This document shows positions 17,386-19,233 of a stretch of 64,000 nt of DNA, one piece after another. A model generated the notes under the pieces. The model had not been told where the DNA came from. It saw only the letters and a list, made by a program, of their open reading frames with translations, and made no database searches. Source of the stretch: Terriglobia bacterium (GTDB lineage: Bacteria > Acidobacteriota > Terriglobia > 20CM-2-55-15); contig CAXWPJ010000009.1 in NCBI GenBank assembly GCA_963664115.2, positions 576,001-640,000 of the forward strand. Reading direction: 5' to 3'. Each line of letters opens with the position of its first letter. Positions within the stretch are counted from its first letter, which is position 1. A program made the position numbers and the translations under genes.

Positions 17386-18000
17386 ATGGGCGTGCGTTTC
17401 ATGTCTCGGCTGGCGTTCTCGGTGCGACGGCTCTACGATTGGGTGATCGGCTGGGCCGACAGTCCGTACAGCCAATGGGCCCTGTTCGGCATCGCATTTG
17501 CGGAATCGTCCTTCTTTCCCATACCACCCGATATTCTCCTCATCGCTCTCGGCGTTGCACTCCCCCTCAGAGCACTCCGTTACGCCCTGATATGCAGCCT
17601 GGGGTCGGTGATTGGTGGCATTTTCGGATATTGGATCGGATACGAATTCTTCGGGATCATTGGCGAGCCCATCGTCCGGTTTTACGCCGCAGAAGACCAA
17701 TATGTCAGGGTGCAGGAATTATATCGCCAGTATGACGCCTTCGCCGTGGCTATAGCAGGTCTCACCCCCATTCCGTACAAGGTCGCAACGATCACAGCCG
17801 GATTCTTCGAGGTCAACTTCGGACGTTTCGTGCTGGCGTCCGCTGTGAGTCGATCCCTTCGCTTTTTCGTGATTGGCGGCCTGATTCGCGTTTTCGGGGC
17901 TCCGATCCGGGCATTCATCGAAAAATATTTTGAGATTTTGATCATAATATTCCTTATCCTATTGGTCGCCGGCTTCGCAGTAGTTCGGTTATTTTTTTAA
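17386..18000 (+). CDS. yqaA: YqaA/DedA (VTT domain) membrane protein
   Basis: FAESSFFPIPPD and TPIPYKV motifs; GGAGG at 17376. Confidence 0.85.
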   Translation: MGVRFMSRLAFSVRRLYDWVIGWADSPYSQWALFGIAFAESSFFPIPPDILLIALGVALPLRALRYALICSLGSVIGGIFGYWIGYEFFGIIGEPIVRFYAAEDQYVRVQELYRQYDAFAVAIAGLTPIPYKVATITAGFFEVNFGRFVLASAVSRSLRFFVIGGLIRVFGAPIRAFIEKYFEILIIIFLILLVAGFAVVRLFF

Positions 18001-18016
18001 GAAAGAGGAGAATTGA

Positions 18017-18496
18017 ATGCCCAATCCAACCAACGAGCTGAAGGTCGGCGATGAAGCGCCGGACTTCACTCTCCCATCGCATCTCGACTCCGAGATGACA
18101 TTGTCCAGTTTCAGGGGCAAGAAGAACGTGGTCATGGCCTTTTACCCGGTCGCGTTCACACCCGTGTGAACGCTGCAGATACCGGCGTATGAGGAAGATC
18201 TTTCCGAATTCGACCGGTCCGATACCCAGGTCCTGGGTATTAGCATCGACTCGACATATTCCAACAAGGCGTGGGCCGAATCACTGGGTGGAATCTCCTA
18301 TCCCTTGCTGAGCGACTTCTGGCCTCACGGAATGGTCGCATTGAAATATAACGTCCTTCGAAAGGAAGGCATCACCGAGCGTGCGATCTTCATAATCGAC
18401 AAGAAAGGCATCGTGCGCTATATCGACGTTCACGACATCGGCGACCAACCCAAGAATTCAGTTCTTTTCGAAGAACTGAATAAGATCGCGGGTTAA
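18017..18496 (+). CDS. AhpE-type peroxiredoxin, probable selenoprotein (TGA=Sec at 18167-18169, codon 51), 159 aa
   Basis: [19 protein letters not shown]...[17 protein letters not shown]...LLSDFWPHG...[14 protein letters not shown] sits exactly at the peroxidatic Cys of PxxxTxxC and the frame continues. Confidence 0.88.
18181..18218 (+). promoter_or_regulatory. Candidate bacterial SECIS for the peroxiredoxin
   Basis: Hand-folded: ACCGG/CCGGT outer stem starts 11 nt after TGA; apical GGAA[GATCT]TTCC with G first in the loop. Confidence 0.5.
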
Positions 18497-18510
18497 GGAA
18501 TCCGACCGGC

Positions 18511-19233
18511 ATGGGCGGCGAAACCGCCCATGCCAACCTCCCCTCCCAGATGCCCATTCAGATTGCCAGAGCCTGTATTCCTTACACGCCTTTCAAGCGT
18601 GACCTCAATGGTTCGCGGGTAGCTCTCGTGACAACCGCAGGCGTCTATGCGGAGGGAATGGAGCCATTCACGGACAACGATTTAAGCTTCAGGAAGATTC
18701 CCAGTGACGTCGACACCGGAGAGCTTCGGGTTGTTGCCGGTCACTACGACCCCACCTCTGCCGCAGCCGATATCAACTGCGTATTTCCATTGGATAGACT
18801 GAGAGATCTCGTTTCAAACGGTGTCGTGGGGAAGATATCCGACTTCCACATTTCGATGGGACTGACGACCCAGTTGCGGAAACTCAAGGAAGATGTCAGT
18901 TGGACTCTGGCAGAAGAGGTCGCACGGCTACGCCCGGATGTGGTGCTTCTGACCGGTGGCTGACCGCTCTGCCATCGGACGGTCGTCACGATTCAACGGG
19001 CCATCGAGTGCATGGGTATCGCTTCAGTTCTGATTACGGTCTCGCCCGACGAGTCCGAACAAGCCGGCCCCTCCCGCGCGCTATACCCCAAGCCGTTTAC
19101 CGTGGGTCAGTCGCTCGGTCCCCCGCACCAGGCTGCACTCCAGCTTCGAATAATTTCAGACGCGCTGGATCTCTTGAAGAACCCCGGAGAACCCGGGACA
19201 ATCGTTACGAAAGACTACGGTCCTACAGCGTAA
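18511..19233 (+). CDS. PrdB/GrdB-like (glycine/proline reductase selenoprotein B family) protein, TGA=Sec at 18961-18963, 240 aa
   Basis: PYTPF, RVALVTTAGVY, DINCVFPLDRL, DVVLLTGG-TGA-PLCHRT (UxxC); joins ORFs 18511-18963 and 19012-19233 in frame; PSRALY...GQSLGPP C-terminus. Confidence 0.88.
18974..18992 (+). promoter_or_regulatory. Candidate bacterial SECIS for the PrdB-like gene
   Basis: Hand-folded ATCG-GAC[GGTC]GTC-A-CGAT starting 10 nt after TGA; loop begins GG. Confidence 0.55.

Follow-up and report, generated by a model that had tools for sequence, protein, structure and literature searches.

A conserved pair of predicted selenoprotein genes, encoding an AhpE-type peroxiredoxin and a stand-alone PrdB-like protein, in a Terriglobia genome

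We analyzed three consecutive genes on the forward strand of a Terriglobia bacterium (assembly GCA_963664115.2), at positions 17386 to 19233 of a window of 64,000 nucleotides (nt) from contig CAXWPJ010000009.1 (576,001 to 640,000). All positions below are those of the window. The first gene encodes a DedA-type membrane protein, the second a peroxiredoxin, and the third a protein related to PrdB, a subunit of D-proline reductase. Under translation table 11, the DedA-type gene ends at 18000 and is followed by fragments, and both downstream genes are split. If TGA is read as selenocysteine (Sec, or U), then 18017–18496 becomes a single frame of 159 amino acids (aa) with one TGA at 18167–18169 (FTPV-U-T), and 18511–19233 becomes a single frame of 240 aa with one TGA at 18961–18963 (LTGG-U-PLC). 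The initial annotation of this DNA had claimed just this, namely one in-frame TGA at the catalytic position of each gene and a track of open reading frames (ORFs) that breaks both, and the claim was confirmed by retranslation and by the alignment columns of homologues. Contigs from another sequencing run (X13) were identical to the stretch, with zero differences, which is weak evidence in itself. Among contigs from an RNA library, one spans the TGA of the peroxiredoxin gene unchanged and one bridges both genes, in small shares only; contigs from this run cannot tell whether the genes are transcribed, how strongly, or as one unit.

The closest named relatives are metagenome-assembled genomes of Terriglobia or Acidobacteria, and we compared the locus across three larger samples. 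In 301 genomes from the class, 63 have some PrdB-like match, and 23 of these are orthologues (at least 61% identity), all in the window's family. A search of 401 genomes from the phylum, with a Cys homologue from Ktedonobacteria as the query, gave 27 that match. From metagenomes, we took the best 80 of at least 582 loci, a set that is biased to the query's clade, and dropped two true prd loci to leave 78. Counts over related genomes and loci are not independent, because of kinship, and do not amount to a statistical test.

The PrdB-like gene probably starts at 18550, which gives 227 aa and a gap of 53 nt after the peroxiredoxin gene, rather than 240 aa and 14 nt. We rejected the ATG at 18511 because it lies within an 11-base-pair (bp) G+C hairpin (18508–18534, plus strand; -23.1 kcal/mol, without a U-tract) that would bury it, and because it is missing from most relatives; the Met at 18550 is conserved, with a start there or within two codons of it in 23/23 family orthologues (GTG in one). 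Residues 1–15 of the 240-aa structural model also have a predicted local distance difference test score (pLDDT) below 50. The UxxC frame that was first proposed for this gene stands, and its length and spacing (240 aa and 14 nt) probably do not. Residue numbers below are those of the 240-aa frame (U151 and C154). A hairpin of varying sequence is found at the same intergenic place in L015–L026, L028, and L037 and in none where the genes abut; a role in mRNA stability is a guess. A single operon is suggested by five family loci (L027, L029, L033, L035, and L036), where the start of the PrdB-like gene overlaps the peroxiredoxin stop or directly adjoins it. A scan for promoters and terminators found nothing above chance. 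An intergenic 12-mer with 78 genomic copies resembles a repeated element by chance and was set aside. This element, probably an insertion sequence, has about 75 near-identical copies across all large contigs of G000 (e.g., C1:600 and C2:12726), none of them in the window.

The peroxiredoxin (18017–18496, plus strand, 159 aa) matches PF00578 with E = 2e-35 (121 bits, against a cut-off of 26). In the family alignment, P44, T48, and U51 of the PxxxTxxU51 motif and the catalytic Arg (R122) are invariant. The protein has no Cys at all and hence no resolving Cys. Its best match in PDB is AhpE of Mycobacterium tuberculosis (E = 1e-32; 1e-24 for the next subfamily), and U51 falls on the AhpE Cys. By its sequence, this is an AhpE-type peroxiredoxin with a single Sec (1-Sec), an assignment that comes from the PDB sequence match. 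In one relative, a Cys-containing peroxiredoxin of the AhpC type immediately precedes the Sec peroxiredoxin (L030:416-829).

The PrdB-like protein (18550–19233, plus strand, probably 227 aa) stands alone and has a U-P-L-C-H-R motif and an N-terminal Cys (C22). The PrdB model TIGR04483 matches over the whole length, at 146.2 bits against a cut-off of 300, which is below the equivalog level. PF07355 (GRDB superfamily) gives 32.1 bits, above its gathering threshold of 22, and the GrdB/GrdF/GrdH models give 45–48 bits against cut-offs of 65–800. As in PrdB (TIGR04483), the UxxC motif lies about 150 residues into the protein. For comparison, we used two metagenomic loci (L121 and L123) that are true prdC-prdA-prdB-prdF operons (PF09338 matches their PrdA with E = 1e-32); the PrdB of one of these loci has Cys instead of Sec (L121:3932-4660). 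A true PrdB from such an operon is 39% identical to the PrdB-like protein over 189 aa, and the PrdB proteins of both loci have the same CHR tail as the PrdB-like protein. Beyond the redox motif, H155-R156, D87-x-N89, P93, R96, G117, and R189 are invariant or nearly so and are shared with true PrdB. The redox motif is C/U-P-x-C (CPFC in six loci), which is a glutaredoxin-type spacing. The third, N-terminal Cys is found in 87 of 110 loci, is replaced in 12 clade members, and is absent from true PrdB. A quick tree places these proteins in a clade of 104 rows, with support of 93, apart from true PrdB.

The predicted structure of the PrdB-like protein (pLDDT 90) has U151-x-x-C154 at the N-terminal end of a helix that follows a strand. 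Neither a PDB sequence search nor Foldseek at E ≤ 0.001 found a solved relative, and VIA-align returned only generic Rossmann-like alpha/beta domains (best Z of 9.3, root-mean-square deviation of 3.7, 140 aligned). This lack of structural relatives does not show a new fold. At E ≤ 0.001, PrdB-like proteins comprise 3,505 representatives. Scanning 36 longer or odd-length proteins of 150 listed representatives with Pfam, we found no fusion to a peroxiredoxin or a thioredoxin; the fusions that we did find were three with PrdA, one with a helix-turn-helix (HTH) domain, and one weak UGSC match. Other orphan PrdB-like clades (L040–L044 and L140–L153; P0139, P0141, P0153, P0161, and others) mostly have TGA and lack a nearby peroxiredoxin. 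Many representatives from other clades are 380–420 aa long with an unassigned C-terminal extension, and P0130 is fused to an HTH domain.

As judged from conservation, both genes very likely encode selenoproteins. The TGA read as Sec51 (18167–18169, plus strand) is kept in 22/22 family orthologues and is replaced by TGT or TGC in 24 distinct homologues. The TGA read as Sec151 (18961–18963, plus strand) is kept in 23/23 family orthologues. These orthologues span 61–100% identity, and both TGAs are retained in 9/9 named relatives. For the PrdB-like gene, we also examined this column in the best 120 of 295 homologues. Among those of at least 200 aa, 45/46 have C-P-x-C there (C-P-x-x-C in one), and the exception is a frame-shifted call. 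Another 73 of the 74 homologues that are shorter than 200 aa end exactly before the TGA column. The TGA is fixed at a Cys column across 40–100% identity, with intact downstream halves; since U51 likewise aligns with the AhpE Cys, the alignment of Cys with TGA that had been suggested as a check was found in both genes. The TGAs are confirmed to be neither chance nor sequencing error because they are kept across relatives and because the contigs from the second run are identical.

The genome (4.89 Mb, 97% complete, not closed) carries the tRNA-Sec gene selC as well as selA, selB, and selD, so that all four of the genes that the initial annotation asked about are present. Its selD has one internal TGA of its own. 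We rejected genome-wide recoding of TGA, on the sole basis of a tRNA-Trp with CCA and a tRNA-Sec with UCA. A second peroxiredoxin-like gene in G000 (C9, about 74400–75000, minus strand) has an in-frame TGA in U-P-F-C and an N-terminus like a signal peptide, and is likely a selenoprotein.

Downstream of each TGA, we predict a selenocysteine insertion sequence (SECIS). In the peroxiredoxin gene (18182–18217, plus strand), this has a lower stem and an apical stem (18193–18205) with a loop that starts with G, 28 nt past the TGA. Of 32 distinct TGA forms, 22 have the whole apical stem, as against 0 of 24 Cys forms (which are mostly from one clade), and two pairs show two-sided changes. Synonymous conservation at codons P56, S63, and R67 is 0.95–1.0, a level reached by 0/49 other codons. 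In the PrdB-like gene (18974–18992, plus strand), the predicted element is a 7-bp stem with a bulged A and a 4-nt loop that begins with GG, 18 nt past the TGA. Codons 156–160 are identical in 23/23 orthologues (the mean elsewhere is 0.52), and of the other invariant degenerate codons (61), none but the codon that immediately precedes the TGA attains 0.95. This stem is complete in 22/23 family members and never varies, so there is no covariation. In distant forms, the hairpin at one register is found in only 8/40 TGA forms versus 2/33 Cys forms. What speaks against selenoproteins is that the folding energy 3' of both TGAs is not significantly different from that of shuffled sequences (z from -1.6 to +1.8); also, the minimum-energy fold after the TGA of the PrdB-like gene pairs unlike the proposed SECIS.

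The two genes are linked well beyond this genome. The peroxiredoxin gene is directly upstream of the PrdB-like gene in 22 of 23 family loci, and the remaining locus begins at a contig end. A peroxiredoxin orthologue (at least 71%) is present in exactly the same 23 family genomes, and the other 12 of 35 hold neither gene (for the peroxiredoxin, at E ≤ 1e-30). Across the phylum, the 14 best places outside the bacterium's own genome, which come from six other families, all have a peroxiredoxin directly upstream (14/14); 14 weaker and more distant PrdB-like places have none within 1.5 kb (0/14). In the metagenomes, 47 of 78 loci have a peroxiredoxin, or 18 of 28 where both flanks are at least 1.5 kb. 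The peroxiredoxin is upstream in 23 of the 47, convergent in 23, and downstream in one; in 40 it lies within 400 nt. The catalytic residues of peroxiredoxin and partner (U for Sec, C for Cys) were U/U in 34 of 71 linked loci, C/C in 16, C/U in 12, and U/C in 3, with 6 cut before the site; in the phylum set, they were U/U in 7, C/C in 1, and U/C in 6. The peroxiredoxin is the only neighbor that is shared across lineages. Conservation of the pair, which the initial annotation had left to be surveyed, is supported by these counts.

We also examined 40 AhpE-like loci from the top of the class list, outside the window's family. None of them (0/40) has a PrdB-like neighbor, and no conserved replacement partner lies beside them. 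Following the catalytic residue, 78/78 linked and 6/40 unlinked peroxiredoxins have a particular motif, a comparison that is partly circular because the motif was drawn from the linked set.

The usual partners of PrdB and GrdB were not found. In a profile search of the genome, PF07355 had one match, the PrdB-like gene itself. PF09338 (PrdA/GrdE) had no match in the genome or in any of the genomes carrying the clade (0/26), including two single-contig genomes (G048 and G056); the control built into this search gave no signal. With tblastn at E ≤ 0.01, the PrdA proteins of L121 and L123 and the PrdC and PrdF of L121 matched nothing in the genome, and these queries do find each other. As a control, true PrdB matched only the PrdB-like gene (39%). 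Given two tandem selenoproteins, the Sec machinery, no pyruvoyl proprotein found, and the conserved pairing, our results support the conclusion that the PrdB-like gene does not encode a subunit of a Stickland reductase. This agrees with the initial proposal of a selenium-dependent redox module unrelated to Stickland fermentation, and the suggested search for prdA or grdE elsewhere in the genome came up empty, with PF09338 for both and with tblastn for PrdA.

By analogy with mycoredoxin-1 and AhpE, the PrdB-like protein may be the dedicated reductant of the peroxiredoxin; we give this a probability of about 50%. The argument is that a peroxiredoxin with a lone redox residue needs an outside reductant and that PrdB attacks a partner-bound substrate. 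According to the accessible text of PMC6178380, AhpE has a single Cys and depends on an outside reductant, mycoredoxin-1, which acts via mycothiol. The accessible text of 10.1101/2023.12.15.571967 describes PrdB as requiring processed PrdA to act on proline and as attacking the partner-bound substrate with its Sec. The Terriglobia genome has bshC and a thioredoxin reductase, and it has no match to glutathione synthetase (gshB).

In the cycle that we envision, the hairpins would let SelB decode each UGA as Sec. Sec51 would reduce hydrogen peroxide or an organic peroxide, which would leave a selenenic acid or a mixed selenosulfide with bacillithiol. Sec151 would then attack the oxidized Sec51 species and C154 would resolve the adduct to an internal selenenylsulfide, a UxxC half-cycle like that of PrdB on its PrdA-bound substrate. 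Finally, the PrdB-like protein would be re-reduced by thioredoxin reductase and thioredoxin or by bacillithiol, perhaps via C22. If so, the orphan has exchanged PrdA for AhpE and reduces its oxidized or thiolated active site. More tentatively, and with more doubt than belief, we suggest that a clade of the PrdB/GrdB family left Stickland metabolism and became a new class of peroxiredoxin reductase, with UxxC or CxxC outside the thioredoxin fold and a third relay Cys, which recharges AhpE-type 1-Sec or 1-Cys peroxiredoxins in several lineages, Acidobacteriota and Ktedonobacteria among them.

Several observations weigh against a dedicated reductant. The thioredoxin reductase is another reductant at hand, and co-location indicates a shared process but not its direction. 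No peroxiredoxin is found at 10 of the 28 well-flanked metagenome loci or near any member of one well-supported subclade (L040, L109–L111, L114, and L115), and in one genome (G268) the two genes are separated by 162 kb. Of 301 class genomes, 152 carry AhpE-like genes, and 13 unlinked peroxiredoxins nest among the linked ones, most of them in genomes without a PrdB-like match; together, these imply that the peroxiredoxin can do without a PrdB-like partner. The convergent order at 23 loci could result from a single inversion and excludes co-transcription. Also, the model has a Rossmann-like alpha/beta fold, and no thioredoxin-fold chain is among the top structural matches listed.

The two proteins might instead act in parallel in one stress response: thioredoxin or a small thiol would regenerate the peroxiredoxin, and the targets of the PrdB-like protein would be other oxidized proteins or S-thiolated thiols, which it would reduce. 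Such an arrangement would accommodate the convergent loci, the occurrence of each gene without the other, the presence of thioredoxin reductase and bshC, and the thousands of PrdB-like proteins from other clades (3,505 representatives), whose 14 examined loci lack a nearby peroxiredoxin. We consider it rather unlikely because the one-to-one co-occurrence in the family (23 genomes with both, 12 with neither) and the peroxiredoxin motif (78/78 linked versus 6/40 unlinked, with the circularity noted above) suggest a specific contact.

A less probable alternative, which we doubt, is that the flow is reversed or involves a small molecule: the PrdB-like protein would carry out a PrdB-type reductive cleavage of a C-N, C-S, or S-O bond, and the peroxiredoxin would protect it or relay oxidation to it. 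The 39% identity to true PrdB, the residues shared with it beyond the redox motif, the same CHR tail, and the apparent difference of the predicted fold from thioredoxin would all fit. However, PrdB acts on proline only with processed PrdA (accessible text of 10.1101/2023.12.15.571967), and the conserved neighbors of the pair include no gene for substrate binding, transport, or catabolism.

The DedA gene raises another alternative. It encodes a DedA/VTT-domain membrane protein (17386–18000, plus strand, starting at 17386 or 17401; PF09335, E = 7e-15), was labeled YqaA in the initial annotation, and is probably co-transcribed with the pair here, on the same strand. The annotation proposed that the pair is possibly tied to the membrane through this protein; such a tie might serve the repair of lipid hydroperoxides or the uptake of selenium. 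The gap to the peroxiredoxin gene is 16 nt, and the DedA gene is upstream of the pair in 8/9 named relatives and in 12/22 family loci. Two of these loci keep it despite an inserted toxin-antitoxin-like pair; the inserted gene between the DedA gene and the peroxiredoxin (L025:3025-3372 and L026:3028-3339) is one that we take to be a Phd/YefM-like antitoxin. A DedA protein is reportedly connected with selenite resistance, going by the title alone of a 2005 paper. AhpE is described as membrane-associated in the accessible text of PMC6178380. But of the 10 family loci without the DedA gene, nine have about 1 kb of upstream DNA (one has none), and none of the 78 metagenome or 14 phylum loci has the gene upstream of the pair. 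We therefore rejected it as a core part of the module and see it as a local neighbor, and the proposed tie to the membrane, left without support, seems very improbable.

It is still less probable that the PrdB-like gene encodes a true subunit of proline or glycine reductase whose PrdA or GrdE is missing from the assembly: the best family match is TIGR04483, databases label the homologues PrdB, and the genome is 97% complete and unclosed, but the score is half of the cut-off, PF09338 is found in 0/26 genomes, there is no PrdA, PrdC, or PrdF, and the branch is separate from true PrdB. That the TGAs are real stops or errors in pseudogenes or split genes can be practically dismissed, even though the folds after them are no more stable than shuffles, given the TGA at a Cys column, the intact downstream halves, the Sec machinery, and the frozen synonymous codons.

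On the other side of the pair, a small gene with two CxxC motifs (19223–19495, minus strand, about 70–90 aa, zinc-ribbon-like) is convergent with the PrdB-like gene and overlaps its end by 11 nt. It lies inside a 285-aa ORF without a Pfam match, and relatives of it are found in 17 family-type loci. A DUF2231 membrane protein (19579–20073, minus strand) is near the pair in 12 family-type loci.

If the PrdB-like protein does reduce the peroxiredoxin as a member of a new reductase class, it would be the first orphan "PrdB" selenoprotein with an assigned function. Such orphans are among the commonest selenoproteins in aerobic environmental DNA and carry an untested annotation as proline reductase, and 1-Cys peroxiredoxins outside Actinobacteria often lack an assigned reductant. 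For the orphans, the pair offers a concrete substrate, and for the peroxiredoxins, a concrete reductant; the natural Cys/Cys versions (e.g., L073, L087, and L129) make this testable without Sec expression. The annotation is corrected in any case: both genes are routinely truncated at UGA, and the PrdB-like gene is misnamed.

Each family by itself is known. TxxU peroxiredoxins and non-clostridial UxxC "PrdB" proteins have been catalogued since 2005, so the novelty that the initial annotation implied does not extend to them; it does appear to extend to the pairing. Going by the accessible texts, ocean metagenomes hold 42 UxxC "PrdB" sequences in the Sargasso set (PMC1088965) and 235 in the Global Ocean Sampling (GOS) set (PMC2398784), and "proline reductase" selenoproteins were reported in Anaeromyxobacter and Geobacter (PMC1794560). 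In the literature searched, which did not extend to paywalled articles or to supplementary files such as the GOS sequences, the pairing was undescribed; the accessible texts of 10.1101/2022.07.06.499078 and PMC10127716 have nothing on it. What we describe is apparently a previously undescribed, conserved pairing of two known selenoprotein families.

Among known systems, the marine stand-alone "PrdB" proteins belong to the same broad family outside clostridia and their function was untested there, and no linkage to a peroxiredoxin is reported in the accessible texts of those papers (PMC1088965 and PMC2398784). Operons of two selenoproteins are also known, with adjacent redox selenoprotein genes that are thought to share a pathway: according to the accessible text of a 2026 review (PMC13188914), these are grdA-grdB, prdB-prdC, Prx-SelW, and Prx-like-AhpD-like. 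The pair of peroxiredoxin and PrdB-like protein is not in the "Selenoprotein operon" list in that text, which also names a Tso operon without its contents. Clostridial PrdB, the 26-kDa Sec subunit of D-proline reductase, resembles the PrdB-like protein in length, in the position of UxxC, and in the CHR tail; here, however, the motif is U-P-L-C rather than U/C-G-T-C, most clade members have an extra N-terminal Cys, PrdA, PrdC, and PrdF were not found, and the branch is separate. Selenoprotein B (GrdB/GrdF/GrdH) has about 435 aa and a GrdE partner, versus 227–240 aa here. PrxU of the Eubacterium acidaminophilum type (NF040737) is likewise a Sec peroxiredoxin with TxxU, but our peroxiredoxin scores only 74 bits against a cut-off of 270 for this model of 233 positions, and it belongs to a different subfamily. 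The peroxiredoxin is closest to AhpE of M. tuberculosis (Rv2238c), with which it shares a single peroxidatic residue, the lack of a resolving Cys, and the LLSDFWPH stretch. Unlike AhpE, the peroxiredoxin here has Sec in place of Cys, and in contrast to AhpE with mycoredoxin-1, its neighbor is not mycoredoxin-like but a PrdB-like protein of apparently another fold, in a genome that has bshC.

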